Part shown: positions 3,990 to 51,815 of the stretch, piece by piece
Numbering within the stretch: the stretch's first letter is position 1
Layout of the letters: every line of letters starts with the position of its first letter
Assembly (NCBI GenBank): GCA_039586755.1
Contig: JBDHJU010000007.1
Span: 27,876-91,875 of the forward strand
From: Gemmatimonadota bacterium
GTDB lineage: Bacteria; Gemmatimonadota; Gemmatimonadetes; Palauibacterales; KS3-K002
Length of the DNA: 64,000 bases
Reading direction: 5' to 3'
Notes under the pieces: model-generated
What the model was told of the DNA's origin: nothing
The model's database searches: none
What the model saw: the letters and a program-made list of their open reading frames with translations, nothing else
Made by a program: the position numbers and the translations under genes

Positions 3990-3994
3990 GTCAA

Positions 3995-4858: not shown

Positions 4859-4860
4859 TC

Positions 4861-8356: not shown

Positions 8357-8510
8357 CTGCGCCTGGCAGGAATCCTCCCACGTTTTCGGGCGGCTTCTAT
8401 CAGCGGGGGCGACACGCGCTGTTCCCGTGCCGGACACGAGGGATTGCGGGCGAGGGGGTGGTGTGAGATCTTCCAAAGTCCATCCCTTCCTCAGCATGGA
8501 GCCCCAGCAC

Positions 8511-9347: not shown

Positions 9348-9349
9348 TA

Positions 9350-9428
9350 ACCGGTGACCGGCGACCGGTAGCCGGTGGGGACGGGCCGATTTCCACCGGC
9401 CACCGACCACTGGCTACCGAGAATCTGC
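9350..9428. repeat. REP-like palindromic element (CCGGTAGCCGGTG family), copy 1
   Basis: accggtagccggtgg..gatttccaccggccaccgaccactggctaccg: imperfect hairpin. Same family recurs at 13935-13990. Confidence 0.6.
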
Positions 9429-9485
9429 CCTACCCACAGTCCAGCTACCTCGTATAATTAGGCGCCATGTACCCAAGGTCGTGCC

Positions 9486-10784: not shown

Positions 10785-10791
10785 ATTCGCG

Positions 10792-12096
10792 ATGGTGGAA
10801 ATCAAAGGGTTGCCGGGGTTTAGGGATTTCTATCCTGAGGAGATGGCCACTCGCTCGTATTTGATGGGTGTGTGGCGTGATGTCGCACGGCGGTACGGAT
10901 TCGAGGAGTACGACGGGCCGCCGCTCGAGGCGCTGGAGCTCTACACCCGCAAGTCGGGCGAGGAGATCGTCCAGCAGGCCTACGAGTTCGAGGACAAAGG
11001 TGGGCGCCGGGTCGCGCTCAGGCCCGAGATGACGCCGACCCTGGCCCGGATGGTTGGGGCGCGGGCGGCGGCACTTCGCAAGCCCGTCCGCTGGTTCTCG
11101 GCGCCGCAGCTCTTCCGCTACGAGCGCAAGCAGCGTGGTCGCACGCGGGAGCACTTCCAGCTCAACCTGGACATCCTCGGAGAAGAGGATGTGCTGGCCG
11201 ATGCTGAATTGCTCGCCGCAGCTATCGACATCATGCGTGCCACGGGGCTCGATTCGACCCAGGTCAGGGCACGGGTCTCGGACCGCCGTGTGCTGGCGGC
11301 GATCTTCCTGCACCTCGGCGTGCCAGAGACGAAGCTCGAGTCCGTCTACGCGGTCGTCGACAAGTTGGAACGCGAGCCTCGTGAGCGACTAGATACCAGG
11401 CTAGCCGACCTCGGCCTCGAGCCGGAAACGATTGCCGGGGTGTTCGAGGCTACTGAGCTTCGGGGCATCGCCGACCTCGAGGCTCGGTTCGGCGACGTCC
11501 CGAGCGTTGCCAAGCGCGTCGCTGAACTCGCTACCTATCTCGAGCACCTCGAGAACTTGGGTGTCGTCGAGTTCGTCGATATCGATCTCTCGGTGGTTCG
11601 CGGGCTGGCCTACTATACCGGTATCGTCTTCGAGTTGTGGGACGCAGCTAGACAACTGCGCGCCATCTGTGGCGGCGGCCGCTACGACGATCTCCTGGGG
11701 TTGATCGCCGGCGTCGACCTGCCGGCACTCGGGTTCGGGATGGGCGATGTCGTGCTCACCGAGTTGCTGCGCGACCATGGGTTGCTGCCCGAGCCCGGTC
11801 GATCGCTCGACTGCTTCGTCGCCTGGCTCGGTGCCGACGGCCGCCGCCAGGCGCTGCGGGCCGCTCGAACCCTCAGGTCGGCGGGCCTGTCGGCGGTCTT
11901 CGAGTTCCGTGATCGCCGTCTCGGTAACCAGTTGAAGAGCGCCGACCAGCTGGGCGCGCGGCGCGCAGTGATCATTGGACCGCAGGAAATGGAGGCGAGC
12001 CAGGCTCGGATACGTGACATGTCGACGGGTGAAGAACGCGTCGTACCCTTGGACGAGTTGGGCGCGACGCTGGCCGCGGAGCTGGGCGATGGCTAG
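10792..12096 (+). CDS. hisS: Histidine--tRNA ligase
   Basis: 434 aa. Class II aaRS motifs. N-terminus MVEIKGLPGFRDFYPEE and GGGRYDDL motif are typical HisRS. Confidence 0.9.
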   Translation: MVEIKGLPGFRDFYPEEMATRSYLMGVWRDVARRYGFEEYDGPPLEALELYTRKSGEEIVQQAYEFEDKGGRRVALRPEMTPTLARMVGARAAALRKPVRWFSAPQLFRYERKQRGRTREHFQLNLDILGEEDVLADAELLAAAIDIMRATGLDSTQVRARVSDRRVLAAIFLHLGVPETKLESVYAVVDKLEREPRERLDTRLADLGLEPETIAGVFEATELRGIADLEARFGDVPSVAKRVAELATYLEHLENLGVVEFVDIDLSVVRGLAYYTGIVFELWDAARQLRAICGGGRYDDLLGLIAGVDLPALGFGMGDVVLTELLRDHGLLPEPGRSLDCFVAWLGADGRRQALRAARTLRSAGLSAVFEFRDRRLGNQLKSADQLGARRAVIIGPQEMEASQARIRDMSTGEERVVPLDELGATLAAELGDG

Positions 12097-12484
12097 CGGC
12101 GGCCGGCAGGCGGCGCGGCGTGCGGCGCGAAAGCCGAGTGTGCGCGAGCGCTGGGAGGCGACAGCGGTGGATGAGGACGCGGCGCTGGAAACGATGACCG
12201 ATGAGCTGCTCGACCGGGTAGTGGGCCCCGCCTGGGAACGGCTCGGTCCGTTGAGCGCTGGAGCTGTTGCGGGCAGCGTGGCTATCGTGAGCGCGAGAGG
12301 GCTGCTGCGTCGGCTATTGGGCCGGCGCTACGGCCGGATTATCAGTTGGGTGGGAGCAGTTGCACTTGTACCGGTGGCCCTCTGGCTGCTCTCTGGAGAT
12401 CCACGAGTGAGGGACACGAAGCCGCAGGCCGACGATGAGGAGACGAGCCTGCCAGACGGAGACCGAGAGAAACTCGATGGCTGA
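12089..12484 (+). CDS. Hypothetical small membrane protein
   Basis: ATG overlaps the hisS stop (GATGGCTAG). Predicted TM helix ISWVGAVALVPVALWLL. No family recognised. Confidence 0.45.
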   Translation: MASGGRQAARRAARKPSVRERWEATAVDEDAALETMTDELLDRVVGPAWERLGPLSAGAVAGSVAIVSARGLLRRLLGRRYGRIISWVGAVALVPVALWLLSGDPRVRDTKPQADDEETSLPDGDREKLDG

Positions 12485-13934
12485 AGACAAGGTGCTGACC
12501 CCGCGGAGCGAAGATTTCTCCGCTTGGTACAACGGAGTCGTCCAGCGAGCCGAGCTGGCAGGGCACTCACCGGTGCGCGGCTGCATGGTGATCCGCCCGC
12601 ACGGCTACGCGATCTGGGAGCTCATGCAGCGGGCCCTGGACGGGATGTTCAAGGCCACAGGTCACCAGAACGCCTACTTCCCGCTCTTCTTGCCCCAGAG
12701 CTTCTTGCAAAAGGAGGCCGAGCACGTCGAGGGGTTCGCGCCTGAGATCGCCTTGGTTACACACGGAGGCGGTAAGGAGCTCGAGGAGCCGCTCGTCGTG
12801 CGCCCGACGTCGGAAGCCATCATCTGGCCGATCATGGCCGACTGGATCCAGAGCTACCGTGACCTGCCGATGTTGATCAACCAGTGGGCGAACATCGTTC
12901 GCTGGGAGATGCGGACCCGGCCGTTCCTGCGGACGCTCGAGTTCCTCTGGCAGGAGGGGCACACGGCCCATGCCACTTGGGACGATGCGCAGCGCGAGAC
13001 GCTGCTGATCCTCGGGTTATACCGGCAGTTCATGGAGGAGTATATGGCCATGCCGCCGGTGACCGGGATCAAGACGGAGTGGGACAAGTTCGCCGGCGCC
13101 GACCGCACTTACGCCTGCGAGGCGATGATGCAGGACAACTGGGCGCTACAGGCGGGCACATCGCACAACCTCGGCCAGAACTTCGCCCGCGCCTTCGACG
13201 TGAAGTACCAGACGGAAGACGGCGCGCACGATTTCGTTTGGAGTACGTCCTGGGGGGTATCTACGCGCCTGGTCGGTGGTCTCGTGATGACGCACAGCGA
13301 TGACACCGGTCTCGTTCTGCCGCCGAAATTAGCTCCGATCCAGGTGGTCATTGTGCCGATCTGGAAGTCGGAAGAAGAAAAGACGCGCGTCCTGGAAGCC
13401 GGCGCGCGGCTGGAGAAGACTCTGAACGGTGATTTGCGTGTCAAGTTCGACGGCCGCGACACTCTGAACCCCGGCGCCAAGTACTACGAGTGGGAAGGGA
13501 AGGGCGTGCCCATCCGCATCGAGATCGGGCCCAAGGACCTGGCAAAACAACAGGTCATGGCGGTGTTGCGCGTCTCGAAAGATCCCAAGGCACGGAAGAT
13601 CCCGATCGCCGACGGCGATGTGGTCGCCAGAATCCCCGCGCTACTCGATGAGATGCAGGCTGCCCTGCTCGATGCAGCGCTGCGGCGGCGCGAGGAAAAC
13701 TCCTACCGTGGCGTGACCGATTACGAAGAGTTTAAGCGCATTATCTCTTCCGGCGGCGGATTCATTCACACCGGCTATTGCGGGGCCGAGGAATGCGAGA
13801 CGAAAGTCAAGGATGACACCAAGGCCACCGTTCGGGTGATACCCGATGAAGACTTCGCCAGCGACGAGGTGCCGGACAAGTGCATCTGCGGAGGGCCGGC
13901 GGAGACGGAGGTGGTTTGGGCGCGGGCGTACTGA
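12477..13934 (+). CDS. proS: Proline--tRNA ligase, archaeal/eukaryotic-type (class II, no editing insertion)
   Basis: MAEDKVLTPRSEDFSAWYNGVVQRAELA..VRGCMVIRPHGYAIWE is characteristic of the archaeal-type ProRS N-terminus. C-terminal zinc-binding CGAEECE...CICGG. Confidence 0.9.
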   Translation: MAEDKVLTPRSEDFSAWYNGVVQRAELAGHSPVRGCMVIRPHGYAIWELMQRALDGMFKATGHQNAYFPLFLPQSFLQKEAEHVEGFAPEIALVTHGGGKELEEPLVVRPTSEAIIWPIMADWIQSYRDLPMLINQWANIVRWEMRTRPFLRTLEFLWQEGHTAHATWDDAQRETLLILGLYRQFMEEYMAMPPVTGIKTEWDKFAGADRTYACEAMMQDNWALQAGTSHNLGQNFARAFDVKYQTEDGAHDFVWSTSWGVSTRLVGGLVMTHSDDTGLVLPPKLAPIQVVIVPIWKSEEEKTRVLEAGARLEKTLNGDLRVKFDGRDTLNPGAKYYEWEGKGVPIRIEIGPKDLAKQQVMAVLRVSKDPKARKIPIADGDVVARIPALLDEMQAALLDAALRRREENSYRGVTDYEEFKRIISSGGGFIHTGYCGAEECETKVKDDTKATVRVIPDEDFASDEVPDKCICGGPAETEVVWARAY

Positions 13935-13990
13935 TCGGTAGCCGGTAACCGGTAGCCAGTGTGGCCTTCACCGGCCACCGGTCACCTCTC
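13935..13990. repeat. REP-like palindromic element (CCGGTAGCCGGTG family), copy 2
   Basis: cggtagccggtaaccggtagccagtgtggccttcaccggccaccggtcacc. Shares the ACCGGTAGCC.GTG / CCACCGGCCACCG arms with 9350-9428. Confidence 0.6.
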
Positions 13991-14005
13991 GAACGAAGGG
14001 ACGGA

Positions 14006-15571
14006 ATGCTCAGCAGCACCTTACCCAAAGACCGCATACTGATCCTCGACTACGGGTCGCAGTACACCCAGCTCATCGCCCGGCGCATCCGCGAGGAACG
14101 GGTCTACTGCGAGATCCACCCGCCGACGCACCCGACCGCGTGGGTGAGGGAGTGGGGGCCCAGCGGTGTGGTTCTGTCGGGTGGGCCGGCGAGCGTCTAC
14201 GGCGACGATGTGCCTACGGCGGATGCCGAGTTGCTCGAGCTCGGCGTTCCGGTGCTCGGTATCTGCTACGGTATGCAGCTCATAGCACAGCTGGTCGGCG
14301 GTGTGGTCGAGAGCGCGACGAGGCGCGAGTACGGGCGTGCCGAACTCGAGGTCATCGAGCCCAACGACCTGTTCGACGGGTTCGCCCCTGGCGAGCGCTC
14401 CACGGTCTGGATGAGCCACGGTGACCGAGTCGAGAAAACGCCGTCCGGGTTCGAGGTACTGGCTGCGACCGACACGGTGCCGGTAGCGGCATTCCGCGGC
14501 ATTGACCGTCCCATCTTCGGCGTCCAGTTCCACCCCGAAGTCGCCCACACGGCGCGCGGCGGTGAAATCATCTCGAACTTCCTTTTCCGCGTGTGTCATT
14601 GCGAGCCGAGCTGGACGGCGGGCTCGTTCATCGAGAATCAGGTGAAAGGAATTCGCGAGCAGGTCGGCGATCGTGGGCACGTGATCTCGGGGCTGTCGGG
14701 TGGCGTCGATTCGTCGGTGGCAACCGCCCTCGTGCACCGTGCAGTCGGCGACAAGATGACGTGCATCTTCGTCGATACCGGACTGCTGCGAAAAGGCGAA
14801 CGCGATTGGGTCGCCCGCACCTTTCGTCAGCATTTGGGCATCGAGCTGCGGGTCGTAGATGCGTCCGACACGTTTATCAACCGGCTGGCGGGCGTGGAGG
14901 ACCCGGAGGAGAAGCGTCGGATCATCGGCCATACGTTCATCGAGGCGTTCGAGGGCGAAGCCCGTTCGATCGGCTCCGAGGTGCGGTTCCTCGTCCAGGG
15001 CACGCTCTATCCGGACGTCATCGAGTCGCTCTCGGTGCGCGGGCCCTCGGATACGATCAAGACTCACCACAATGTCGGTGGCCTACCCGAGGATTTGCCG
15101 TTCGAGTTGATCGAACCTCTGCGCGAGCTGTTCAAAGATGAGGTACGCCAGGTTGGACGTGAGCTCGGACTGCCCGAAGAGCTCGTCGGACGACACCCGT
15201 TCCCGGGCCCCGGACTCGCCGTTCGCGTCGTGGGCGATGTGACGCGGGAGCGACTGGCCGTACTGCGCGATTCGGATGCCATCTACCTGGAGGAGATCCG
15301 CGCCGCTGGGCTCTACGACGAGATCTGGCAGGCGTTCGCCGTCCTGCTGACCGTGCACTCGGTCGGCGTCATGGGCGATGGCCGTACCTACGAGAACGTC
15401 ATCGCGCTGCGTGCGGTGACCAGCCGGGACGGTATGACCGCCGACTGGTACCAGTTCCCTCACGAGGTACTGGGCCGGATCGCCACTCGTATTATCAATG
15501 AAGTCGCAGGAATCAATCGGGTCTGCTACGACGTGAGCTCGAAACCGCCGGCGACCATCGAATGGGAGTGA
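14006..15571 (+). CDS. guaA: GMP synthase (glutamine-hydrolysing)
   Basis: [20 protein letters not shown] GATase start, [10 protein letters not shown]-loop, C-terminus KPPATIEWE identical to E. coli GuaA. ORF track starts 13961. ATG 14006 fits the homologue N-terminus. Confidence 0.95.
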
Positions 15572-25955: not shown

Positions 25956-26810
25956 ATGACGACTGTAGGCACTCTCTATCTCATCAGCACGCCCATCGGC
26001 AATCTCGGTGATATGACGCACCGGGCCGAGTCGTCGCTGCGCGAGAGCGACATCATTCTGGCCGAAGACACCAGACGGACCCGCGTCTTGCTCGACCACT
26101 ACACGATCGAGCCGCGCTCGCTGAAATCTCTTCACCAGCATAACGAGGCCGCCCGGACGGACGAGACGCGAGCCGCCCTAGAAGCCGGCAAAACCGTGTC
26201 GCTGGTCGCCGACTCGGGTACGCCGCTCATCTCCGATCCCGGCCAGCGTCTCGTGCGGGCGGCGATCGAGGTTGGCGCCCGCGTCGTGCCTGTCCCGGGT
26301 CCGTCGGCCGCGCTGGCGGCTTTGGTAGGCTCCGGCCTCGATGTCCAGCCGTTCACTTTTTTCGGTTTCCTGCCGCGCAGCGGGCGCCGGCGCCGCGAAC
26401 TATTCGCCCAGCTCGCTACGCTTCGTCATACGGCTGTGCTGTTCGAGTCACCGCAGCGGCTGGTTGCCACCTTAGAGGAGCTTGCCGAGCAGCTGGGCCC
26501 CGAACGCGGAGTCGTGGTTGCCCGGGAACTGACGAAAATCCACGAGGAGTTTGTGAGGGGGACCCTGCTGGAAGTTACGGCATATTACAACGAGCACACA
26601 CCGTTGGGAGAGGTGGTTGTTTGTCTGGCGGCGGCGCCCGAGGCGCCGGCGGAGGAGGTCGAGGACGCTGCCCGCGCGGAGGCGCGTGTCTTGGCCGGAG
26701 CTGGTGCCACGTCGAAAGAAATCGTGCGGGCGCTGCGCGAGCGTCATGGCCTCGAGCGGAACCGCGCCTACGCGATAGCGCTCGAGGTGACGCAGGAGGA
26801 TCGGAACTGA
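25956..26810 (+). CDS. rsmI: 16S rRNA (cytidine1402-2'-O)-methyltransferase RsmI
   Basis: 284 aa. LYLISTPIGNLGDMT...ILAEDTRRTRVLL is a signature of the RsmI/YraL tetrapyrrole-methylase-fold family. Confidence 0.85.
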   Translation: MTTVGTLYLISTPIGNLGDMTHRAESSLRESDIILAEDTRRTRVLLDHYTIEPRSLKSLHQHNEAARTDETRAALEAGKTVSLVADSGTPLISDPGQRLVRAAIEVGARVVPVPGPSAALAALVGSGLDVQPFTFFGFLPRSGRRRRELFAQLATLRHTAVLFESPQRLVATLEELAEQLGPERGVVVARELTKIHEEFVRGTLLEVTAYYNEHTPLGEVVVCLAAAPEAPAEEVEDAARAEARVLAGAGATSKEIVRALRERHGLERNRAYAIALEVTQEDRN

Positions 26811-26839
26811 GGCAGAGCAGACTGGCCTGGTGTGCTGGG

Positions 26840-27511
26840 ATGGCGCTGATGCTCCACGCCGACGCGGGTCGCGCGCAGTCGCCGACGACGGCCGCGCCGA
26901 ACCCCATCCAGCCTACCATAGCGCGGCTCCATTACGACGGGGGCGGCGATTGGTACGCCAACCCATCTTCGTTACCGAACCTGCTGGAGCGAATCGCTAG
27001 AGATACGCGCCTGCCGGTTGCCGATCGTGAGGCGGTGGTCACGCCGCTGAGTCCGGACCTGCACGACTATCCTTATCTCTATATGACAGGTCATGGTAAC
27101 GTGCGGTTCGGCGAGTCGGAGGCGTCAGCGCTCCGGGCGTATCTGTTGGCGGGTGGCTTTCTACACGCGGACGACAACTACGGTATGGATGAATCGTTTC
27201 GCCGCGAGCTGCGACTCCTGTTCCCGGAGTTGGAGCTCGTGGCCGTACCATTCGACCATCCCATCTACCGAATCGTGCACGTGCTCCCCGACGGTCTGCC
27301 AAAGGTCCATGAGCACGATGGATTGCCGGCGGAAGGTCTGGGACTGTTCCACGAGGGCCGGCTCGTGGTCTTCTACAGCTATCAGTCCGACCTGGGCGAC
27401 GGCTGGGAGGATCCGCAGGTACACGACGACCCGTCCGAGGTCCGTGAGCGGGCGCTGCGGATGGGTGTGAACCTGTTCGTCTACGCCGTGGCGCAGCGCA
27501 AACCCCTATGA
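26840..27511 (+). CDS. DUF4159-like protein (class-I glutamine-amidotransferase/ThuA-like fold, predicted)
   Basis: About 223 aa. GGGDWYANPSSLPNLL...YLYMTGHGNVRFGESEASALRAYLLAGGFLHADDNYG resembles the DUF4159 consensus. ORF track begins 26621 inside rsmI; first ATG after rsmI stop is 26840. Confidence 0.6.
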   Translation: MALMLHADAGRAQSPTTAAPNPIQPTIARLHYDGGGDWYANPSSLPNLLERIARDTRLPVADREAVVTPLSPDLHDYPYLYMTGHGNVRFGESEASALRAYLLAGGFLHADDNYGMDESFRRELRLLFPELELVAVPFDHPIYRIVHVLPDGLPKVHEHDGLPAEGLGLFHEGRLVVFYSYQSDLGDGWEDPQVHDDPSEVRERALRMGVNLFVYAVAQRKPL

Positions 27512-30500
27512 AGCACCCCGCATCTTCTCCCCAGAGCCGCGTCCGCGCCCTGTGGCGGCGCGTAGCCCTGCAGCTGGGCCTAGCCGCCCTTGGCGGCGCC
27601 CTGGCGGCCGCCGGTGGCCTGCTGCTGTTGAGTTGGCTGGCCGGCTCCAGCCCGCTCTGGCAGAGGCCTTCCGTGCTACCGCTGGTGCTCTTAGCCTCGG
27701 CGTTCGCAGCAGCCGCTGCGTGGTTGGGGAGCCTTGCCCGCAGAGCATCGCGCTGGGACCGGGAGGCGGCCGCAGCGGAGATCGAAGAGCGGGTCGGTCT
27801 GCCACGCGGGTCGGTGCGCGGCGCTGTGGAGCCCGGATTGGAAAGGCCGGGTACGTCGCGCTCGCTCATCGAACTGCACCGATCGCGACTAGCGAAGGCA
27901 CTGGAGGGGTTTGGCCCGGCCGAACTGGGGAGCGCCGTGGCCCGGGCCGCGCGCGCCCAGGCAGCGGTCACGCTGACGCTGGCGCTCGTCGCGCTCGTCG
28001 CTTCCCTCGCAGTCTGGCTGGGCGCGCGGGACCAGGCGGTCACGGCATGGGCTGCCGTTCTTCGCCCCGTTCGTCACCTCTCTGCGCCACCTCTACCTCC
28101 GATCCGTCTGGATGCCGACCGCGAGATCCGCCGCGGGCGGGACCTGCGGGTGCAGGTTGAGGCAGCGTTACGCGACTCGGTGCAGTTGGCCTGGCAGCCA
28201 CGGGGCGAGGTGGTGCGGCGGCGGTGGTTGGCAATCAGCGGTGGAAGTGGAGAGGCCACAGTTCGGCGCGTCGAATCGCCACTGGCGATATGGGTGGAGG
28301 CGCCGGACGGTGCGCTCAGCGACACGTTGCGCGTCGAGACCGTCGATCCGCTTCTTCTCATCGATCTGCGCATCGATCTCCGGTTCCCTCCCCACACGCG
28401 CCGTGAGACGGAAGTGTTCTCGGACCTGCCTACCGTCATGGTGGTGCCCGAAGGCACCCGGGCCACGGTCACCGGAGTGACGACGCGACCGGTGGGGCGT
28501 GCTGTGCTCACAGCTTCCGGCGGCCGCACGATCCCGTTCGCCGTCAGCGACGCGCGCCGTTTCCGCTCATCGTTCGCGGTGACGTCGGGAACATGGGGAT
28601 GGGACATCGTCGGCTTGGGAGGAGAGGCTCTCGAAGGTGAGCCCGACTCGCTCCGTTTTCTGACCGTGCCGGACAGCGTGCCGCGGGTCCGGATAACACA
28701 TCCAGGCGTCGATACGCTTCTCAGCGTCGACATGACGCAGCCGCTACTCATCGAGGCCAGCGATGACTACGGTCTCTCTCGGGTCGAGCTCGTCAGCTGG
28801 CGTGTCTCGGCGTGGGGCGAGCGATGGCCTGAAGAGGTAGAAGCGCTGCCCAGCGGCTCTGACATGCCGCGAGCCAACCTGGCCGGCCTGGTCGATGCAC
28901 GCGGTCGCGGATTCCTGCCCGGTGATACTCTGCGCTACTTCGCCCGCGTCTACGACAACGCTCCCGATCCCCAGATCGGGGTGAGTCGTGAGTACGTACT
29001 GCGACTGCCGAGCCTGGATGAAGTCCGTGAGCGTGCCGTCGCCGACGCCCGCGACTTGGTGGAGGACGCCGAGAGCCTGGCCGAGCGGGCGCAGGAGCAT
29101 CAGGAGGCGATGCAGGCGCTTGAGCGCTCGACCGAGGTACGGCCACCGCCGGGCCAGAACCTCCTGGGGCCGGAAAAAGGTGAACGGGGCGTCGAGTTTC
29201 GCGAGACGGAGGAAGCGCGTCGTGCTCTGGAACAAGCGGAGAGGCTTTTGCAGGCCTCGCGCGAGATCTCCGAGTCACTTCGCGAGTTGCAGGAGAACAT
29301 CGAACGTGCCGGATTGAATGACGAGAGCGTGCTGGAGCGGCTGGCCGAGATCGAGTCGCTGTTCGAGCGTGTGCTGACGCCTGAACTGCAGGAGCGGTTC
29401 GATGCGCTGCGCGAAGCGCTGGTCGAGCTCGATCCGGAGCAGATCCGCGAGGCGATTCGACAGCTGAGCGAAGGCAGCGTGGATTTCCGCGCACGAGTCG
29501 AGCGCGCCGTCGAGTTGCTGCGCCGCGCGGCAATGGAGCAGGAGTTCCTGACTCTAGAGACGCAGGCGGAGGAGCTGGTCGAGGCGCAGGAAGAGCTCGC
29601 CGATGCCGTCTCCGATGCGGTAGCCGAAGCGAGCGGCGGGGAGGTCGAGGATTCGGTGGCGGGGCCGCTGGCGCGGCGCGCCGCCGAGCTTGCGGAGCAG
29701 GCGGACGAACTTTCGCGCGGGGTGGGCGAGCTGGCAGAAGAGCTGGCGGCGGCGATGGAGGAGCTGGCGGCAGAACGGGCGGGAGCGGCGGAACGCGCCG
29801 CGGCTGACGCGGCCGGATCCGACCAGCAGGCGGCCGGCGATCTGCCGAGCCGGCCAGGCGGGGCGCGGAGTGCTTCGCAGCGGGCGCTGGCACAGATGCA
29901 GCGGGCGGCCTCGGAGCTGCGGGAAGGCCGCCAGGAGATGCAGGAGGCCTGGCGCCAGGATGTGGTGGCCGCGATGGGGCGGGCCCAGGCGGAGGCGCTG
30001 GAGCTGGCGCGTCGGCAGCGCGAGCTGAACGAGCGAATGAGCTCGGTAGGTGAGCGGCGAAACTCGGATGCCATGTCCGATCAGGTCGCGATGCGCGGCG
30101 CTGTGCAGCAGGTCGAGGACCAGCTTACCGAGGTTTCGGAGACATCCTTGCTGGTCGACCCGAGGTTGGCGCAGGCGGCAGCGCAGATTGGCGCGGCGAT
30201 GGAGGAGTTGGTTAGCCAGATGGCCGATGCCAGTCGTGCCGGGCCGCCTGACTGGCGCCTGGGAGACGGCGCCAGCGAAGGGCTGGCCGAGCTGGCGTAC
30301 CGCCTGATGCAGGCCGGCGATGCGGCGGCGATGGCTCAGTCGGGCACCGGGCTCCAGGAAGCGTTGGCGCGACTCGCCCAGCTGGCCGAGCAACAGGGCG
30401 CTCTGAACCAGGAGTTGGGCGGTATGACGTTGGGCGACGCGTTGCTACGCGAACTCCAGCGCCTCGCCGGCCAGCAACGAGCTGTGGCGCAGGACCTGGG

Positions 30501-30885
30501 CGCGATCAACCAGTCGCTCGGCCCGCGCGGGCAGGTACTCGGCCAGCTCGACGCGCTGGAGAGGGAGGCCGAGGATCTGGCGCAGCAGCTCGAGCAGGGA
30601 AGGCTGGACGAAGAGATCCTCCAGCGCCAGAACAGGCTCTTCCAGCGACTGCTCGATGCGGGTCGCACCCTCGAGCAGGACGAGTTCGAGCGGGAGCGCC
30701 GTGCCGAGCGACCCGCCGACGTCGAGATACTGCGACCCGGCGAGTTACCGCCGGAGCTGCTGCGCGGTCGGGCGTTTGCACATCCGGCGAGCGACGTGCT
30801 TAGTCGGTACCCGCCAGCGATCCGCCGCCTGATCCTCGAATACTTCGACCGGCTCAACGATCGGGAGGGCTCCGGTGGCTCGTAG
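27508..30885 (+). CDS. Giant (1125 aa) membrane protein: N-terminal double-TM anchor, beta-rich middle domain, ~600-aa E/A/R/L/Q-rich coiled-coil C-terminal region
   Basis: ATGA overlap with upstream gene. Two hydrophobic helices in the first 80 aa and a third around residue 170. Residues ~520-1100 are heptad-like, low-complexity (…ERAQEHQEAMQALERSTE…AAMEELAAERAGAAERAA…). Possibly DUF4175/BatA_N-like (from memory, unverified). Confidence 0.6.
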   Translation: MKHPASSPQSRVRALWRRVALQLGLAALGGALAAAGGLLLLSWLAGSSPLWQRPSVLPLVLLASAFAAAAAWLGSLARRASRWDREAAAAEIEERVGLPRGSVRGAVEPGLERPGTSRSLIELHRSRLAKALEGFGPAELGSAVARAARAQAAVTLTLALVALVASLAVWLGARDQAVTAWAAVLRPVRHLSAPPLPPIRLDADREIRRGRDLRVQVEAALRDSVQLAWQPRGEVVRRRWLAISGGSGEATVRRVESPLAIWVEAPDGALSDTLRVETVDPLLLIDLRIDLRFPPHTRRETEVFSDLPTVMVVPEGTRATVTGVTTRPVGRAVLTASGGRTIPFAVSDARRFRSSFAVTSGTWGWDIVGLGGEALEGEPDSLRFLTVPDSVPRVRITHPGVDTLLSVDMTQPLLIEASDDYGLSRVELVSWRVSAWGERWPEEVEALPSGSDMPRANLAGLVDARGRGFLPGDTLRYFARVYDNAPDPQIGVSREYVLRLPSLDEVRERAVADARDLVEDAESLAERAQEHQEAMQALERSTEVRPPPGQNLLGPEKGERGVEFRETEEARRALEQAERLLQASREISESLRELQENIERAGLNDESVLERLAEIESLFERVLTPELQERFDALREALVELDPEQIREAIRQLSEGSVDFRARVERAVELLRRAAMEQEFLTLETQAEELVEAQEELADAVSDAVAEASGGEVEDSVAGPLARRAAELAEQADELSRGVGELAEELAAAMEELAAERAGAAERAAADAAGSDQQAAGDLPSRPGGARSASQRALAQMQRAASELREGRQEMQEAWRQDVVAAMGRAQAEALELARRQRELNERMSSVGERRNSDAMSDQVAMRGAVQQVEDQLTEVSETSLLVDPRLAQAAAQIGAAMEELVSQMADASRAGPPDWRLGDGASEGLAELAYRLMQAGDAAAMAQSGTGLQEALARLAQLAEQQGALNQELGGMTLGDALLRELQRLAGQQRAVAQDLGAINQSLGPRGQVLGQLDALEREAEDLAQQLEQGRLDEEILQRQNRLFQRLLDAGRTLEQDEFERERRAERPADVEILRPGELPPELLRGRAFAHPASDVLSRYPPAIRRLILEYFDRLNDREGSGGS

Positions 30886-32668
30886 GCTCGCCCTCGGGCT
30901 GACCGCCTGGCTGCTCCTCGCTGCTAACGCTGCAGCGCAAACCGATGAGCAGCGGCAGCAGTTCCGACAAGAGATGCGGCGGATCGAGTCGCTCGAGCGG
31001 GTGGGCCAGTGGTCGGATGCGTTAGCAGCTTTGGGCGAGCTGCTCCAGGAATGGCCTGCCGAGCCGCGCGCGCTGGCGACTGCCGTCCGCATCCATCGCC
31101 GACAGGGTACCCTGCGGAGCGTGCTGCCGGCCCTAGAGCGGGCGGTGCAAGTTGCTCCGACATCGCCGGGGCTGCGACAGCTGCAGCTCGGGGTGCTGGT
31201 CGATCTGGACCAGAAAGCACAGCTCAGGGAGGCTGGGGAGGCCTGGCTGGCTGCAGCGCCGCGATTCGAGGCCGCCTACCGTGAATACGCGATGGCGCTT
31301 CGGCGTGAGGGGTCGCTCGTCGAGGCCGAGCGAGTGTTGCGGCGCGGGATCGACTCGGTCGAGGACCCCACGACTTTGGCTTCCGAACTCGCCGACATCT
31401 ACTTGCAGCAGCGCCGCTGGGCCCTGGCTGCCGACCTCTGGGCCGTCATCCTCGAATTCTCCCCGCGCGTCGGCCGCGATATGGTCGGCTATCAGCTCGA
31501 CGCCTTGGGACCCGCTGCGCGACCCGCAGCTGAAGCGCTGCTGGCGCGGCTACCCGAAGACGGACCAGCGGAGCAGCGCGAGCTGGCGGCGGTCGCGGCC
31601 CTATACGCAGGGATACCTGGCGTCGCGCGTCAGATGGCACAGGACCTGGCCGCTGAGCTCGAAGGTCGCAAGCGCCAGGAGTTCTTGGCGCGCTTCTCGG
31701 AGGTCGCTACCGATCTGGCGCGGCCGGAGCTACTGGACTGGGCCTACCGTGAGATGCTGGGCTCGCTCGCCGCCGACACTTCCCGCTGGGATGTCGCGCG
31801 CCGCATAGTCGAATATGACTTGAGCGTCGGGGATACCGCGGCGGCAAGGAGTAATCTGGACGAATTCGTGAGGCGAGCGGAGGCGGGCACGCCAACCCAC
31901 CGCTGGGCGAGTGCTCTGCTGATCCGCATCGGCGCAGCGGCTAGTCACGCCGACGCGCGAGACATGCTCGAGGACTACGCCCGGATCTACGAGGAGGACG
32001 ACGACGACGAGTTCCACTCGCTCGTCTCAGCAGTCGCCTTGGCCAGTTTGGGACGCGGCCAACCGGAGGAAGCGGCCCGGGCCCTCGAGCTCGTCAACGA
32101 TCCCGGTGCAGATCCCACCGTCGCGACCACATTCATGCTCACGGGCGCCTATCTGGCATTCTACGGCGGCGACTACGAGGAGGCGCGCGTCGGCTTCGAG
32201 GTGGCCGCGGCTCGTCTGAGCGGAGCGGCGCGCGTCGAGGCGCTGCGTATCCTGGGGTTCCTGCGCAGCGGCAGCGGGGCAGAGCTGCAGGTCGCCGCGG
32301 CGGCCCACCGGCGTAACCTCGAGCGTGGACCGCTGGAGGCCCATGAGGAGCTGGTTCGTGGCCTCCAGCAGGCCACACCTTCGGCAGCTCGCCCGGCGCT
32401 TCTACTCTGGGCCGGTGAGCTGGCCATCGCCGGCGGTTCGCTGGACGGTGCTGAAACCGTATTGGTGCGCCTCGGTGAGCGTTTCCCGGAATCCGGCGAG
32501 GCTCCCGTCGCGATGATGATGCTGGCCGAGGCTCTGGCGCTAGACGGACGGCGCAGCGAGGCGATAGTTCTGCTGGAAGAGCTGATAATCGAGTACCCGG
32601 AGAGCGCGCTGACGCCAATCGGGCGTCGTCGGCTGGCGGAACTGCGAGAAGAGGTCCCCAGGTCATGA
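30875..32668 (+). CDS. Secreted tetratricopeptide-repeat (TPR) protein
   Basis: GTG start overlapping upstream stop by 11 nt. Signal peptide MARRLALGLTAWLLLAANAAAQ. Multiple TPR-like helical repeats along 597 aa. Confidence 0.65.
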   Translation: MARRLALGLTAWLLLAANAAAQTDEQRQQFRQEMRRIESLERVGQWSDALAALGELLQEWPAEPRALATAVRIHRRQGTLRSVLPALERAVQVAPTSPGLRQLQLGVLVDLDQKAQLREAGEAWLAAAPRFEAAYREYAMALRREGSLVEAERVLRRGIDSVEDPTTLASELADIYLQQRRWALAADLWAVILEFSPRVGRDMVGYQLDALGPAARPAAEALLARLPEDGPAEQRELAAVAALYAGIPGVARQMAQDLAAELEGRKRQEFLARFSEVATDLARPELLDWAYREMLGSLAADTSRWDVARRIVEYDLSVGDTAAARSNLDEFVRRAEAGTPTHRWASALLIRIGAAASHADARDMLEDYARIYEEDDDDEFHSLVSAVALASLGRGQPEEAARALELVNDPGADPTVATTFMLTGAYLAFYGGDYEEARVGFEVAAARLSGAARVEALRILGFLRSGSGAELQVAAAAHRRNLERGPLEAHEELVRGLQQATPSAARPALLLWAGELAIAGGSLDGAETVLVRLGERFPESGEAPVAMMMLAEALALDGRRSEAIVLLEELIIEYPESALTPIGRRRLAELREEVPRS

Positions 32669-33924
32669 GTCGGCGTTCCTCCCTAGTGCTGATCCTCGTT
32701 CTGGCCAGTGCCGGGACCGCGCAGGGCCAACATCTCCTGGCCCCGATGGACAACGAGCAATCGAATCACTTACGCGCCTATGGCCTCGCCTACTGGGTCC
32801 TGGGTCGCGGCGAGCAGGTCGAATGGCTGCTCAACTACCGTGCCGGATCGTTCCTGCTTCCTGATGCGCCCGAGGTCCGCCGCGAGGCGGCGCTCCGCGG
32901 GGTTATGATCGAGCCGGTGGGGACGTCACGTTTGGCGGCAATACGCGGCGAGATCGACGGCTCCAACATGGAGGCGGTGATCTTGGAAAAGGCACCGCGG
33001 ATCGCCGTCTACACGCCGCCCGGGTCGCAGCCGTGGGATGATGCGGTGACCCTGGCGCTTACCTACGCCGGTATCGAGTACGACGACCTATGGGACCCGG
33101 AAGTGCTGGCCGGCGAACTGAGCCGCTACGACTGGCTGCATTTGCACCACGAGGATTTCACCGGCCAGTACTCCAAGTTCTACCTGACGTACGCAGGCGC
33201 GGCCTGGCTGCAGGATGAGGTAGCCCGTAACCGCCGCGCAGCGACGGCTTTCGGGTTGCCCGACACGCCGAGTCTCAAGAAGGCGGTAGCAGTGAGAATT
33301 CGGGAGTACGTCGATGGCGGCGGCTTCCTCTTCGCCATGTGCACGGCGACGGAGACGATCGACCTGGCGTTGGCGGCGCTGGGAGTCGACATAGCGGCGA
33401 GCTATGCTGACGGAGATGCGGTCGAAGCGAACGCGAGCGCCCGACTCGACTGGGAAGCTACGTTCGCCTTCGAGGGTGCCGCGGTCTTCGCGGAGCCGGC
33501 CCTCTCGGCCTTCAGTGATATCGATGGCCACCTGGTGAATACACCCATGCGGCAGCCGCTGGGCTCGTTCCGCTTGTTCGACTTCAGCGCCACGATCGAC
33601 CCCGTTGCCACCATGCTCACCCAGAATCACGAGCGCGTGATCCGTGACTTCTACGGGCTAACCACGAGCTACCGTCGCTCGCGCCTCAAGTCTTCCATCA
33701 CCGTCCTTGCCGAAGAGCCCGGCGCGCCCTGGGTGAAGTACCTGCACGGCAACTACGGGGACGGGACCTGGACCTTCCTGGGAGGGCACGACCCCGAGGA
33801 CCCGCAGCACGTGATCGGCGATCCGCCAACCGATCTCGACCTATACCCCCATTCGCCGGGCTACCGTTTGATCCTCAACAACGTGCTGTTCCCAGCGGCC
33901 AAGAAGAAGCACCTGAAGACCTGA
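32665..33924 (+). CDS. Secreted hypothetical protein with GATase1/ThuA-like (DUF4159-related) core
   Basis: ATGA overlap with TPR gene. Signal peptide MSRRSSLVLILVLASAGTAQG. Motif RYDWLHLHHEDF...REYVDGGGFLFAMCTA parallels the DUF4159-like protein at 26840. Confidence 0.55.
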   Translation: MSRRSSLVLILVLASAGTAQGQHLLAPMDNEQSNHLRAYGLAYWVLGRGEQVEWLLNYRAGSFLLPDAPEVRREAALRGVMIEPVGTSRLAAIRGEIDGSNMEAVILEKAPRIAVYTPPGSQPWDDAVTLALTYAGIEYDDLWDPEVLAGELSRYDWLHLHHEDFTGQYSKFYLTYAGAAWLQDEVARNRRAATAFGLPDTPSLKKAVAVRIREYVDGGGFLFAMCTATETIDLALAALGVDIAASYADGDAVEANASARLDWEATFAFEGAAVFAEPALSAFSDIDGHLVNTPMRQPLGSFRLFDFSATIDPVATMLTQNHERVIRDFYGLTTSYRRSRLKSSITVLAEEPGAPWVKYLHGNYGDGTWTFLGGHDPEDPQHVIGDPPTDLDLYPHSPGYRLILNNVLFPAAKKKHLKT

Positions 33925-34050
33925 CTGGCACGCGCCTGTCGTGCCGGCTAGCTTTCATGATTACGTGTAGCTCCAGCTATCTCGCCGTCACACTAGGACA
34001 TGGCGTAGCGACACTTGGCCACCGCTGCAACTGGATCGAAGAGGGGACAG

Positions 34051-35247: not shown

Positions 35248-36081
35248 GTGATTCTCACGACTCTACTGCGACCGCCGGGCGCGCCACCCGAGGACGAGAC
35301 CAAGCGCGCCGTCGGACCCGATCGCCGCGTGATGCCACGGGTGCGCGAGCGGGTGCGGCGACACGAACGCGCCGTCGCCGTCGGCATGATCGCCTCGGTG
35401 CTTCTCCACGTGCTGTTCGTTCGGCTGTCACCACTAATCATCAGATACCTCGAACCGGATATCGTATACTACGTGCCGACCCCGATCGTCATGCCCGAGC
35501 AGGGGATGCGCGTGGTCGATGTGGTCGTGGTCGAGGGGCCGGTGATCGAGCCCGTGCGCGAGCCCGAGCCGGAGCAGACACCGACGGTGGAGGAGGTCGA
35601 ACCGACGCCGTACGTGAGCGCCGCCGAACGACTGCGCCCACGGGTGGGCGACTGGAGGTTGTGGCTCGTGCCGCCGATCATGCGACGCACCGATCTGACG
35701 GAGGCGGAGCGACTGGCGGAAGTCCGGGCCCGCCTTTATGCCATTCTGGAGGCCTACGACGACAGCTTGGCAGCCGAGCTGGCACGCGAAATCGAGCGCC
35801 TCGACTGGACGATCGGCGAGGAGGGTGAAGAGTGGGGGATCTCGCCGGGCAAGATCCACCTGGGTGGCATCACGTTGCCGCTCCCCCTCTACTTCGGCCT
35901 CGACCCTGCCGAGCAGCGCCGCCGCCAGGGAAGCATCGACGACTGGAACGCGATCCGGCGTCAGGCGGGCCAGGGCGCGATCAACGAGCTGTTCGATGAG
36001 CGAATCCGAGCGATCCGCGAGCGGAAGGCCCGGGAGGAGGCGGAGCAGGCGGCCAAGAAGGACACCACCGGCGGCAACTGA
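35248..36081 (+). CDS. Hypothetical single-pass membrane protein, Pro/Glu-rich
   Basis: 277 aa. One TM helix (VAVGMIASVLLHVLFV), proline-rich extracytoplasmic segment, charged C-terminus. No family recognised. Confidence 0.45.
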   Translation: MILTTLLRPPGAPPEDETKRAVGPDRRVMPRVRERVRRHERAVAVGMIASVLLHVLFVRLSPLIIRYLEPDIVYYVPTPIVMPEQGMRVVDVVVVEGPVIEPVREPEPEQTPTVEEVEPTPYVSAAERLRPRVGDWRLWLVPPIMRRTDLTEAERLAEVRARLYAILEAYDDSLAAELAREIERLDWTIGEEGEEWGISPGKIHLGGITLPLPLYFGLDPAEQRRRQGSIDDWNAIRRQAGQGAINELFDERIRAIRERKAREEAEQAAKKDTTGGN

Positions 36082-38918: not shown

Positions 38919-40265
38919 GTGACTAACTCCCCGCGGACCGGCGCGGCTCGTGCCAGCCTGCTCGCGGGAGGGCTCATCCTGATAACGCTGGCTTTGACCA
39001 ACCTGGAGAGTTGCGCCAACGTCCAGGCACCACCGGGCGGCCCACCGGACTCGATCCCTCCGGCCCTGATCGCCGTGTTCCCCGACAGTTACGCAGTCGT
39101 CTCCTGGACCGGAAAACGGGAAAAGGTGCGGTTCGAGTTCGACGAGCCGATCTCGGAGCAGGGCCTGCAGGTCGCCGCAATCCTCTACCCGTTCGAGCCA
39201 CGGCCCAACATCGACAAGGGAAAGCGCGAGCTGCGCGTCCGCCCCCGGGCCGGCTGGGTCGCCGACCGGCTCTACCACGTACGCGTCGAGCCGGTCGTCC
39301 AGGACCTCTTCCGCAACCGGATCGATGAGCCGATCCACCACATCATCTCTACCGGCCTGCCAGTTCCGGAGAACAGCGCCAGCGGTTCGATCTTTGATCG
39401 TATAAGAGGAGAGCGGCTGCCGAATGGCCGCATCGACTTGGTCCTGCTGCCCGACACACTCCGCTACGGTGCGATCGCCGACACCGCAGGCACGTTCAAC
39501 ATCGGCAGGCTGCCGGTGGGCGACTACTACGCCATCGGCTACGAGGACCTCAACAACAACCAGCGGGCCGACGACTTCGACCGGTCTGACACGCTTATCG
39601 TGAGCTTGGGCCAGGCCGACACCCTCGCCTTGGAGTTCCACGTCTTCAAACACGATACCCTGGGCCCCGTGCTCATGGAGGTTGAGCCCATCGACTCGCT
39701 GGTTCTCCAACTGGGCTTCGACAGCTACCTCGATCCCGAGGTGCCCACCAGGACGGAAACCATCGAAGTCCTCGCGCTGGCTGATAGCTCCCCGATCGCT
39801 CTCGACACGGTGTACCACGCCTGGCGTTACGACGTCTGGAGCGACTCCGTTCAGCAAGTGCGGCGCGAGGCCGAGGCCGCAGCTCGGGACTCAGCGGCAG
39901 CCGCACAAGCGGCTGAGGAGGCGGCGGTTGAAGAGGAAGTGGCCGAGGAAGAGGTGGCCGAGCAGGAGCCGCCGGCCGCCCGGCCGACGCCGCCGGCGGC
40001 CGAGGAAGAGGAAGAGCCGACGGAGGAGGCACAGCAGCCGGCCGTCCTGCCGGACATGCGGCTCTATGTGATCGCAACTTCGCCTATCCCGCCGGGCTCG
40101 TATCTGCTGCGCGTGTACCGCCTGATCAACCTGAGCGGCCTGGAGGCCGACAGCGAGGCGACGTTCGAACAACCCGAGCCCGAGCCGCCGCCGGCACCAG
40201 CGGAGGCGGAAGAGCCGCCCGAGGTTCCACCCGACACGGCGGGTGCCGCAGGGAGGGTACGGTGA
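38919..40265 (+). CDS. Hypothetical lipoprotein with Ig-like N-terminal domain and acidic E/A/P-rich low-complexity tail
   Basis: GTG start 4 nt after valS stop. Lipobox LESC. C-terminal AEEAAVEEEVAEEEVAEQEPP... repeats. Confidence 0.55.
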   Translation: MTNSPRTGAARASLLAGGLILITLALTNLESCANVQAPPGGPPDSIPPALIAVFPDSYAVVSWTGKREKVRFEFDEPISEQGLQVAAILYPFEPRPNIDKGKRELRVRPRAGWVADRLYHVRVEPVVQDLFRNRIDEPIHHIISTGLPVPENSASGSIFDRIRGERLPNGRIDLVLLPDTLRYGAIADTAGTFNIGRLPVGDYYAIGYEDLNNNQRADDFDRSDTLIVSLGQADTLALEFHVFKHDTLGPVLMEVEPIDSLVLQLGFDSYLDPEVPTRTETIEVLALADSSPIALDTVYHAWRYDVWSDSVQQVRREAEAAARDSAAAAQAAEEAAVEEEVAEEEVAEQEPPAARPTPPAAEEEEEPTEEAQQPAVLPDMRLYVIATSPIPPGSYLLRVYRLINLSGLEADSEATFEQPEPEPPPAPAEAEEPPEVPPDTAGAAGRVR

Positions 40266-51652: not shown

Positions 51653-51815
51653 GTTGACTCCCGGATTTTTTGTCAGGGGCTCAGAATCTTGGATGCCTGT
51701 GGCCACGTGAAGGTTGTAGGTCGGTTGCGCGCGAGTCGCAACCTTTGTGTCGGTATGGCTGTCTCAAGCGAGTGACACGAGCCCCACCATGCCATCTTTA
51801 AAGAGACGGAAGGAA

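Follow-up and report, generated by a model that had tools for sequence, protein, structure and literature searches.

Four consecutive + strand genes of a Gemmatimonadota bacterium overlap start to stop, and they raise the question of whether their products work as one envelope system and which of them might carry an activity. As a preliminary description had stated, none of the four has a characterised function. The whole stretch of DNA analysed, called the window here, is 64,000 nucleotides long. The four genes (g1 to g4) and the features next to them are located as follows.

25956-26810, + strand: rsmI-like methyltransferase gene (context; Pfam TP_methylase, 4.5e-33)
26840-27511, + strand: g1, DUF4159 protein, 223 aa counted from the ATG
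27508-30885, + strand: g2, 1125 aa, predicted inner-membrane protein of a probable divergent DUF4175 type
30875-32668, + strand: g3, 597 aa, secreted TPR protein
32665-33924, + strand: g4, 419 aa, secreted protein with a core of class I GATase/ThuA-like type, from a family that has no name
33925-33947, + strand: G+C-rich hairpin directly 3' of the g4 stop codon, which may be a weak terminator

Both the coordinates and the overlapping junctions were verified in the sequence: the g1/g2 and g3/g4 junctions read ATGA (27508-27511 and 32665-32668), and the GTG start of g3 at 30875 precedes the g2 stop TAG at 30883-30885, which makes an overlap of 11 nt. Overlaps of 4 nt were found in 2 of the 12 adjacent gene pairs in the first 16 kb of the window; since they are common in this genome, the coupling of g1 to g4 is the mark of an operon and nothing unusual. 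Tight packing, with start-stop overlaps or very short gaps, is retained in the cassettes of relatives, and the gene order trx-rsmI-DUF4159 is kept across Gemmatimonadota. At the downstream end, the 61-nt segment 33915-33975 folded with -19.3 kcal/mol (z = -1.25), shuffled sequences being equally good, and the terminator scan did not call the hairpin.

The assignment of g1 to DUF4159 was borne out by Pfam PF13709 (6.8e-65; 218.8 bits, the cut-off being 25.9), with g1 spanning profile positions 1-201 of 202 as a full-length member. Residues 35-217 matched PDB 4i66 (Hoch_4089) in phmmer at 7.3e-15, and structural evidence has put DUF4159 into the class I glutaminase clan (PMC4702930). The motif GGFLHADD lies at aa 105-112 of g1, and in its GATase1-like fold Asp112 stands at the site of the putative nucleophile Cys of g4. 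Because Asp replaces this Cys, g1 is probably a non-catalytic, exported binding subunit of the GATase fold. The motif pair said to be shared by the first and last proteins does exist (LRAYLLAGGFLHADD in g1, IREYVDGGGFLFAMC in g4), and the sequence similarity between the two proteins is weak (hhalign probability 31%).

A signal peptide is nearly absent from g1 if the ATG at 26840 is the start, and most g1 homologs carry one. In relatives the g1 start codon overlaps the rsmI stop, 4 nt before it, and full signal peptides are encoded. The corresponding feature of the window is the following.

26807-26839, + strand: g1 possibly extended 5' to a CTG start codon, which overlaps the rsmI stop in the string CTGA

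GGAGGA is found at 26795-26800, 6 nt ahead of this CTG, and initiation there could give g1 the full signal peptide MRQSRLAWCAGMALMLHADAGRA, followed by QS. Since the g1 start of relatives overlaps the rsmI stop and CTG 26807 sits at the same place in the window, the 29-bp gap previously described between rsmI and g1 is probably a 4-nt overlap.

The g2 protein was divided into three regions.

27568-28029, + strand: membrane anchor with three TM segments (Kyte-Doolittle scan, window copy plus 24 homologs)
28075-29007, + strand: beta-rich region, aa ~190-500, predicted periplasmic (alignments)
29008-30882, + strand: Glu/Ala/Arg/Leu-rich region, aa ~501-1125, presumed helical (composition)

The hydrophobic segments (aa 21-46, 54-77 and ~147-174) are all conserved in the family, so that the double-TM anchor originally proposed gives way to three TM segments. 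Its suggested likeness to BatA_N/TIGR02226 was not upheld either, with zero matches to PF07584 or TIGR02226 in Pfam and NCBIfam; the genuine BatA-like protein of the Gemmatirosa cluster discussed below matched PF07584 at 1.2e-18. The N-terminus contains 5 K+R and 0 D+E, and an Arg-rich loop of about 70 residues (aa 78-148), predicted to be cytoplasmic, separates TM2 from TM3; by the positive-inside rule, this loop would be cytoplasmic and about 950 residues would be periplasmic. The beta-rich region contains the conserved motifs VPDSxPxV, ARDDxGL and PGDTLRYF, and the C-terminal module is also conserved and terminates in RRLILEYFDRLN. The C-terminal half is presumed, by its composition, to be helical or coiled-coil, and a PDB profile search with g2 returned mostly designed coiled coils, helical bundles and apolipophorin-III.

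The window copy of g2 had zero Pfam matches at E<=0.1 and none to NCBIfam TIGR02302. DUF4175 (PF13779) was detected in 4 of 21 g2 relatives at 14-25 bits, under the gathering cut-off of 27.3 bits, these sub-threshold matches starting in the beta-rich region and covering profile positions ~157-337. Cassette orthologs from other phyla exceeded the cut-off (60.6, 38.1, 30.0 and 29.9 bits), and phmmer linked the window copy to these DUF4175-scoring orthologs at 6e-41 to 3e-49. Since these homologs exceed the cut-off, g2 of the window is probably a divergent DUF4175 protein, by this transitive link only and missed by the Pfam and NCBIfam models themselves. Proteins of the DUF4175/TIGR02302 type begin with two to three TM segments, after which comes an extracytoplasmic stretch that is very long and of low complexity, an architecture matched by the three N-terminal TM segments and long Glu/Ala/Arg-rich tail (aa 500-1125) of g2. 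The sole studied DUF4175-domain protein found in a literature search, Acinetobacter AdvA, is much smaller than g2; it is a cell-division protein with a reported N-terminal DUF4175 domain and two predicted TM helices (PMC7481262).

Signal peptides were found in both g3 (MARRLALGLTAWLLLAANAAA, followed by Q) and g4 (MSRRSSLVLILVLASAGTAQG, followed by Q), in agreement with the export first proposed for them. The TPR nature of g3 was supported by Pfam TPR_14, TPR_6 and TPR_19; its YbgF/BamD-like TPR matches in NCBIfam were weak and sub-threshold, with the C-terminus matching YbgF/CpoB at 1e-8 (35.8 bits, below the cut-off of 90.1). An inner-membrane anchor, a long Glu/Ala-rich helical periplasmic region and a periplasmic TPR protein are also features of Tol-Pal/CpoB-type assemblies that span the periplasm, a likeness of architecture alone that does not imply homology.

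The most conserved member of the cassette is g4, which looks like an exported enzyme. Its model contains a class I glutamine-amidotransferase/ThuA-like core, in which ~200 of the 419 residues align structurally with a query-normalised TM-score of at most 0.36. The protein also has two large insertions and, at its N-terminus, an additional alpha/beta domain. By its export, added domain and insertions it differs from peptidase C26/gamma-glutamyl hydrolase, PuuD/SpuA and ThuA-like/GATase1_like proteins. No profile match to GATase, ThuA, GATase1_like or Peptidase_C26 was found in Pfam/NCBIfam at E<=0.1, and a sequence search against PDB gave zero matches. Two sites in g4 are of particular interest.

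33340-33342, + strand: codon of Cys226, the putative nucleophile (read in the sequence)
33787-33798, + strand: His375-Asp-Pro-Glu378, C-terminal to strand 367-372

Among 82 orthologs, Cys226, H375, D376 and P377 are 100% conserved and E378 is 99% conserved; Cys226 is placed between strand 221-225 and helix 227-237. His375-Glu378 may correspond to the HPE motif known from class I amidotransferases, and the sequence pattern with the predicted secondary structure suggests that Cys226, His375 and Glu378 may form a catalytic triad. For comparison, the window's own GuaA carries canonical GICYG and FHPE motifs, and hhalign produced no alignment between g4 and its amidotransferase domain. To our knowledge, the ThuA-like proteins, which are the top structural neighbours of g4, lack such a Cys. 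The Cys-His-Glu pattern is fully conserved in g4 and absent from g1, and for this reason g4 is the likely enzyme. The basic C-terminus KKKHLKT is also conserved. This Cys-His-Glu pattern had not been remarked on in the preliminary description.

The earlier idea of a MoxR-less, vWA-less relative of Bat-type systems was supported by a megaplasmid cluster of Gemmatirosa kalamazoonensis, itself a member of Gemmatimonadota, in which paralogs of g1 (DUF4159, 3.9e-46) and g2 (9e-51 with the g2 alignment profile A2) come first and last around MoxR-DUF58-BatA/vWA and in which g3-g4 is lacking. The BatA/vWA protein of this cluster is also GATase1_like. No MoxR (AAA_3), DUF58 or vWA was found among the 34 large ORFs scanned in the 64-kb window or in the Pfam-scanned flanks of cassettes in other phyla. 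Mutants of MoxR/Bat clusters show envelope, morphology or aerotolerance defects by a mechanism that is not known (PMC5700661, PMC3557215). Bat clusters, including cmdA-D/RL3499-RL3502 of Rhizobium leguminosarum, likewise encode membrane-anchored, TPR and GATase1-like proteins; compared with the canonical cluster, the cassette lacks the MoxR ATPase, DUF58, vWA and BatA_N and has g3 and g4 as additions.

Among loci with at least 6.2 kb of upstream sequence, the order g1-g2-g3-g4 was found in 29 of 31 from Gemmatimonadota and in 8 of 24 from outside the phylum. Full cassettes were likewise found in Marinimicrobia, Eisenbacteria, Krumholzibacteriota and unclassified genomes; their flanks vary (SecDF, an AI-2E transporter, unassigned ORFs), and neither trx nor rsmI adjoins cassettes outside Gemmatimonadota. 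A Latescibacterota locus contains g2-g3-g4 without g1, and DUF6785 adjoins a g2-g3-g4 locus outside Gemmatimonadota. Within Gemmatimonadota, g2 is inverted and ~9 kb off in one genome (L023) and g1 is missing from another. In many loci g3 is directly upstream of g4, including Calditrichaceae and other loci without g1-g2, and g4 is solitary in Bacteroidota, Kapabacteria, Ignavibacteria and Zixibacteria loci. Adjacency of the four genes is thus conserved across phyla, as their description as one system had supposed, but they are not an indivisible unit; the displaced g2, the missing g1 and the occurrence of g4 or g3-g4 alone mean that the modules can work apart.

We tentatively favour, at somewhat less than even likelihood, a two-module envelope cassette of Gemmatimonadota and several FCB-group phyla, with g1-g2 as scaffold and g3-g4 as enzyme. 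In the first module, the DUF4159/DUF4175 pair that elsewhere flanks MoxR-DUF58-BatA/vWA, g2 would be anchored in the inner membrane by its three TM segments, extend beta-rich domains and then a long helical region into the periplasm, and build a periplasmic scaffold with g1. In the second, g3 would serve as a periplasmic TPR adaptor docking g4 on the scaffold, while g4 itself would act on an amide or gamma-glutamyl-type bond of an envelope component, hydrolysing or transferring it via a thioester intermediate, a MoxR ATPase or vWA partner not being required.

It is also possible, though rather improbable, that two unrelated functions share one transcript, g1-g2 being accessory to a Bat-type MoxR/DUF58/vWA system whose genes lie elsewhere in the genome, and g3-g4 being a periplasmic enzyme that works independently with a TPR protein as partner. 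The modules do part in nature (g4 or g3-g4 can occur alone, and g2 is displaced in L023), and the g1/g2 paralogs sit with MoxR-DUF58-BatA without g3-g4, but the same order and close packing recur amid unrelated flanks in several unclassified genomes and in no fewer than three named phyla, and the MoxR/vWA genes to be served are missing from the window and the scanned flanks. We consider unlikely a Bat 'aerotolerance'-type role in which g4 is a binding or structural protein like the BatA GATase1_like domain and its Cys is structural or redox-active, perhaps linked to the thioredoxin encoded upstream: trx and rsmI are not beside the cassette outside Gemmatimonadota, no sequence similarity was found between g4 and the BatA-like protein, and the strand-Cys-helix arrangement, His-x-Pro-Glu and many extremely conserved polar residues typify active sites. 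Finally, GenBank and RefSeq name g4 orthologs asparagine synthetase B in thousands of entries, a name with practically no chance of being right, as g4 has a signal peptide, a class I type fold and no Ntn amidotransferase or Asn_synthase match in Pfam/NCBIfam. Asparagine synthetase B is a cytoplasmic protein of N-terminal class II (Ntn) amidotransferase and Asn_synthase domains.

MoxR/Bat-type envelope clusters are widespread, and the present cassette retains DUF4159 and DUF4175, which are among their least understood parts, while it sheds the ATPase and vWA parts and gains a strongly conserved, exported g4 predicted to be probably catalytic. If the parts cooperate, g4 would offer an assayable activity and the cassette a simpler system to dissect. 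More speculatively, and with little confidence, g4 may represent an undescribed family of exported Cys-His-Glu amidohydrolases/transferases that is near-universal in FCB-group bacteria, mislabelled AsnB and acts on an envelope component, being TPR-mounted on a DUF4175/DUF4159 scaffold in Gemmatimonadota and allied phyla. If true, this would be the first biochemical handle on DUF4159/DUF4175/Bat-type clusters, in a MoxR-free version. For Gemmatimonadota, Bacteroidota and uncultured phyla related to them, the asparagine synthetase B label may lead metabolic reconstructions astray. Type IX secretion was not supported for g4 of the window, which ends in ...AAKKKHLKT and in which Por_Secre_tail was not found; this domain (PF18962) is present in 6 of the 7 g4 relatives of ~500 aa.

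The four plus-strand open reading frames of the cassette were all found exactly as the preliminary description had given them:

26840-27511, plus strand: g1, DUF4159 protein, 223 aa
27508-30885, plus strand: g2, giant membrane protein, 1125 aa
30875-32668, plus strand: g3, TPR protein, 597 aa
32665-33924, plus strand: g4, GATase-fold protein, 419 aa

Its start-stop junctions were also read as described, with ATGA at 27508 and 32665 and g3 starting on a GTG at 30875, an 11-nt overlap with g2 that includes its stop codon, and the packing is kept in relatives as overlaps of 4-17 nt or gaps of ~10 nt. Such overlaps occur often in the genome (2 of 12 neighbouring gene pairs in the first 16 kb of the window), so those of the cassette mark an operon and are nothing unusual. 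The window has a GC content of ~65%, its closest relatives are Gemmatimonadota, and it is a housekeeping region containing clpB, trxA, rsmI, valS, selA, purH, a PBP2/RodA pair and tRNA synthetases. The promoter scan gave 3 promoter-like sites (expectation 1.2 ± 1.1), all of them away from the cassette, and the terminator scan gave fewer sites than expected; neither contained a usable signal, and the hairpin directly 3' of g4 folded no better than shuffles.

The relationship of the cassette to the Bat/MoxR-type clusters was revealed by a g2 ortholog query, which matched the 1.1-Mb megaplasmid of Gemmatirosa kalamazoonensis (NZ_CP007129.1, plasmid 1, 725555-750478). An unannotated cluster is present at coordinates 2464-14985 of this locus, in the following order:

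gene 1: TPR protein, with a weak, sub-threshold Peptidase_MA-like match
gene 2: DUF4159 protein (3.9e-46)
gene 3: MoxR AAA_3 ATPase (1.3e-59)
gene 4: DUF58 protein (5.3e-41)
gene 5: BatA_N + vWA protein, with a weak, sub-threshold GATase1_like match
gene 6: 1268-aa g2 paralog (9e-51 with the g2 profile A2; DUF4175, 26 bits)
position 7: MacB-like permeases, three genes of MacB/FtsX type

This gene order showed a canonical MoxR/vWA cluster of the same phylum to be bracketed by DUF4159 on one side and DUF4175 on the other. Bacteroides (Bat), Leptospira, Borrelia and Rhizobium (cmdA-D) have clusters of this kind, with envelope and aerotolerance phenotypes and no known mechanism (PMC5700661; PMC3557215). 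The cassette in the window keeps the two bracketing genes, whereas the ATPase/DUF58/vWA core is missing and g3 and g4 are added. In the 64-kb window, the scan of 34 large ORFs detected no MoxR, DUF58 or vWA gene, and the earlier reading of the cassette as a vWA-less, MoxR-less relative of Bat agreed with both the window and the megaplasmid. Two of its components were already known as DUF families, and the MoxR/Bat-type envelope cluster is known as a kind, though not understood; our results tie DUF4159 and DUF4175 to a MoxR-less cassette. Full-text searches found no paper describing the cassette or the g4 family.

In Pfam and NCBIfam, g2 of the window had no match. DUF4175 matches lay just under the threshold of 27.3 bits in 4 of 21 family members, while the positional orthologs of g2 in the same cassette of other phyla scored 60.6, 38.1, 30.0 and 29.9 bits; with these cassette orthologs above threshold, g2 is probably a divergent DUF4175-type protein. 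The double-TM BatA_N-like anchor proposed for it was rejected, since neither BatA_N nor TIGR02226 matched in Pfam or NCBIfam, and three conserved hydrophobic segments were found instead (aa 21-46, 54-77 and 147-174). Together with the positively charged N-terminus, the three segments indicate an N-in topology, which would place a loop of ~70 residues in the cytoplasm and ~950 residues in the periplasm. Within the periplasmic part, a beta-rich stretch (aa ~190-500) precedes one that is rich in Glu/Ala/Arg/Leu, presumably helical, and carries a conserved C-terminal module. The best PDB sequence matches of profile A2 were designed coiled coils and helical bundles. A homology search for canonical DUF4175 proteins with the beta-domain profile A4 gave 22 hits, mostly short and none labelled DUF4175, and full-text searches of the DUF4175 literature returned nothing relevant except AdvA.

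The g1 product is a full-length DUF4159 protein (6.8e-65), related to Hoch_4089 (PDB 4i66; 7.3e-15), which is solved but uncharacterised. The assignment of DUF4159 to the class I glutaminase clan by Pfam was based on structure alone (PMC4702930), and full-text searches for DUF4159 found nothing beyond that paper. Most g1 homologs carry a clear signal peptide; the product from ATG 26840 begins MALMLHADAGRA, which is too short for one. In two relatives (L082, L083) the DUF4159 gene starts with a TTG 4 nt before the end of rsmI, and in two others (L087, L088) it starts at the same 4-nt overlap. At this TTG position the window reads TCG, and its rsmI stop codon is overlapped (CTGA) by CTG 26807, which lies 6 nt after GGAGGA (region 26795-26840); a start there would restore the full signal peptide MRQSRLAWCAGMALMLHADAGRA|QS. 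The true start of g1 is thus probably CTG 26807 and not ATG 26840, and g1 would be translationally coupled to rsmI by this overlap, which is more likely than the 29-bp gap described before. The anatomy of both proteins is corrected in this way, that of g2 by its three TM segments and probable DUF4175 type and that of g1 by the proposed start codon. As for the core said to be common to g1 and g4, a shared LRxYLxxGGFL strand could be aligned, but the alignment around it was weak (hhalign probability 31%, P = 5e-4); g1 Asp112 occupies the position of g4 Cys226. A solitary DUF4159 gene with 47% identity to g1 was also observed on Corynebacterium crudilactis pCRULAC1 (NZ_CP015623.1, 11980-12597), adjoining a dihydrofolate reductase gene within an IS26/Tn3/ISVsa3 mosaic with aph/sul2 resistance genes, a setting and host that are odd for the family.

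A TPR match in Pfam and a signal-peptide-like N-terminus fit the description of g3 as a secreted TPR protein. Its likeness to the TPR domains of YbgF and BamD was generic and sub-threshold, and no similarity to the TPR protein of the canonical cluster was detected by BLASTP. Two apparent fusions were discarded. That of g3 and g4 in P0281 lacks the N-terminal 94 residues of g4 and seems to have arisen from faulty gene calling on a fragment; the long stop-to-stop HemN-TPR ORF at locus L058 probably comprises two neighbouring genes in one frame, as separate ORFs encode the HemN-like and TPR proteins at locus L044.

We tentatively favour a two-module periplasmic assembly, in which g2 would be an inner-membrane-anchored scaffold extending into the periplasm, g1 a non-catalytic GATase-fold subunit joined to g2 as in the MoxR-linked paralogous clusters, g3 a TPR adaptor, and g4 the catalytic subunit, possibly an amidohydrolase or transferase that depends on Cys and acts on an amide bond in the envelope. 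The model builds on established gene identities, fold, residue conservation and synteny, and within it the topology, complex formation and catalysis are putative. The main alternative, which we regard as unlikely, is that the modules are functionally independent and have only a transcript in common, with g1 and g2 serving a MoxR system encoded elsewhere. Bearing on both readings are the loci of g4 relatives, scanned with one genome per species (at least 598 loci, of which the best 80 were taken).

Genes upstream of g4 at those of the best 80 (of at least 598) loci with at least 6.2 kb of upstream sequence
Gemmatimonadota (31 loci): g1-g2-g3, 29; g2-g3 only, 1; g3 only, 1; none, 0
Other phyla (24 loci): g1-g2-g3, 8; g2-g3 only, 1; g3 only, 3; none, 12

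The adjacency was kept at 29 of 31 loci in Gemmatimonadota and at one third (8/24) of those elsewhere, the latter in Krumholzibacteriota, Eisenbacteria, Marinimicrobia, an 'FCB group' genome and two unlabelled genomes; the full set was also found at two loci with shorter upstream sequence, L052 (labelled Limnocylindrales) and L059 (Marinimicrobia). The g2-g3 locus outside Gemmatimonadota is from Latescibacterota, with a DUF6785 protein and a type IX cargo protein upstream. Among the three g3-only loci of other phyla, g3 lies directly upstream of g4 in Calditrichaceae and an unlabelled genome, and the third (L078, Kapabacteria) has a weak TPR match alone, not adjoining g4. At the loci without g1-g3, from Bacteroidota, Kapabacteria, Ignavibacteria, Zixibacteria and unlabelled genomes, g4 is surrounded by unrelated ORFs that vary by locus. 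Upstream flanks of the full cassettes outside Gemmatimonadota also vary (SecDF, AI-2E transporter, ORFs without Pfam match), and no MoxR, DUF58 or vWA gene was present in the flanks scanned there. Within Gemmatimonadota the wider order glyoxalase/trxA/rsmI-cassette-aminotransferase is inherited; at L023 (CP070792.1) g3-g4 are kept with a g2 fragment on the opposite strand ~9 kb downstream, and at L006 (JBDHAD010000025.1) g1 is absent and rsmI runs straight into g2.

The g4 relatives among the best 80 of at least 598 loci came from Gemmatimonadota, Bacteroidota (Pedobacter, Chryseobacterium, Flavobacteriales), Kapabacteria, Ignavibacteria, Chlorobiota, Calditrichaceae, Cloacimonadota, Latescibacterota, Zixibacteria, Marinimicrobia, Eisenbacteria and Krumholzibacteriota, essentially the FCB group. 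The family comprises more than 8000 clusters at 90% identity and 1485 at 50% identity, and g4 had no match in Pfam, NCBIfam or, with profiles A1 and A3, PDB sequences. Orthologs are named 'asparagine synthetase B' or 'hypothetical protein' in GenBank and RefSeq; the former was rejected owing to the absence of an Asn_synthase/class II domain, the signal peptide and the class I type fold. With close homologs as the sole input the C-terminal half was modelled poorly, which a more diverse alignment corrected. In Foldseek the query-normalised TM-score was at most 0.36 and no solved protein covered the whole chain; the extra parts are an N-terminal alpha/beta domain (aa ~23-107) and insertions at aa ~165-217 and ~240-345. 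No alignment to the GuaA amidotransferase domain of the window was obtained with hhalign.

Among 82 orthologs from several phyla, 83 of the 419 positions of g4 were at least 98% conserved. Cys226 (100%) lies between strand 221-225 and helix 227-237, in what the model suggests is the usual 'nucleophile elbow' arrangement, and His375-Asp-Pro-Glu378 (99-100%) follows strand 367-372 and resembles an HPE motif; Cys226, His375 and Glu378 may form the catalytic triad. H35, H159, H162, E163, D164, H322 and H382 are also invariant. A non-catalytic or redox g4 with a Bat-like role is rather improbable, and no similarity of g4 to the BatA-like protein of the canonical cluster was detected by BLASTP. In the two-module assembly g4 would act outside the cytoplasm, and the family clearly does so, since a C-terminal sorting domain for type IX secretion is present in 6 of 7 relatives that are ~500 aa long. 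With its orthologs, g4 represents a highly conserved, exported, probably enzymatic FCB-group family that is misannotated. Its basic C-terminus ...KKKxLKT-COOH (residues 414-419, window 33904-33921) is conserved across phyla (K418 98%, T419 99% of the 82 orthologs); in the type IX-tailed relatives a similar K-rich motif ending in KT is internal, before the sorting domain. A distant g4-like domain (residues ~211-535) was also seen in the 697-aa metagenomic protein P0371, as a fusion with an N-terminal membrane segment resembling Tad/TadE (Flp pilus assembly).

Other ORFs in the window were observed as well. A 277-aa ORF after the aminotransferase gene (35248-36081) has one hydrophobic segment and no Pfam match, and many Gemmatimonadota loci have a relative of it a few kb 3' of g4. 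A 448-aa ORF without Pfam match (38919-40265) directly follows valS and overlaps the selA start (40262) by 4 nt. Two divergently oriented beta-lactamase-family ORFs are located at 50180-51706 (minus strand) and 51747-52601 (plus strand); one is a fusion with C-terminal TPR repeats, and the match of the other is limited to the first ~90 of 329 Pfam profile positions.
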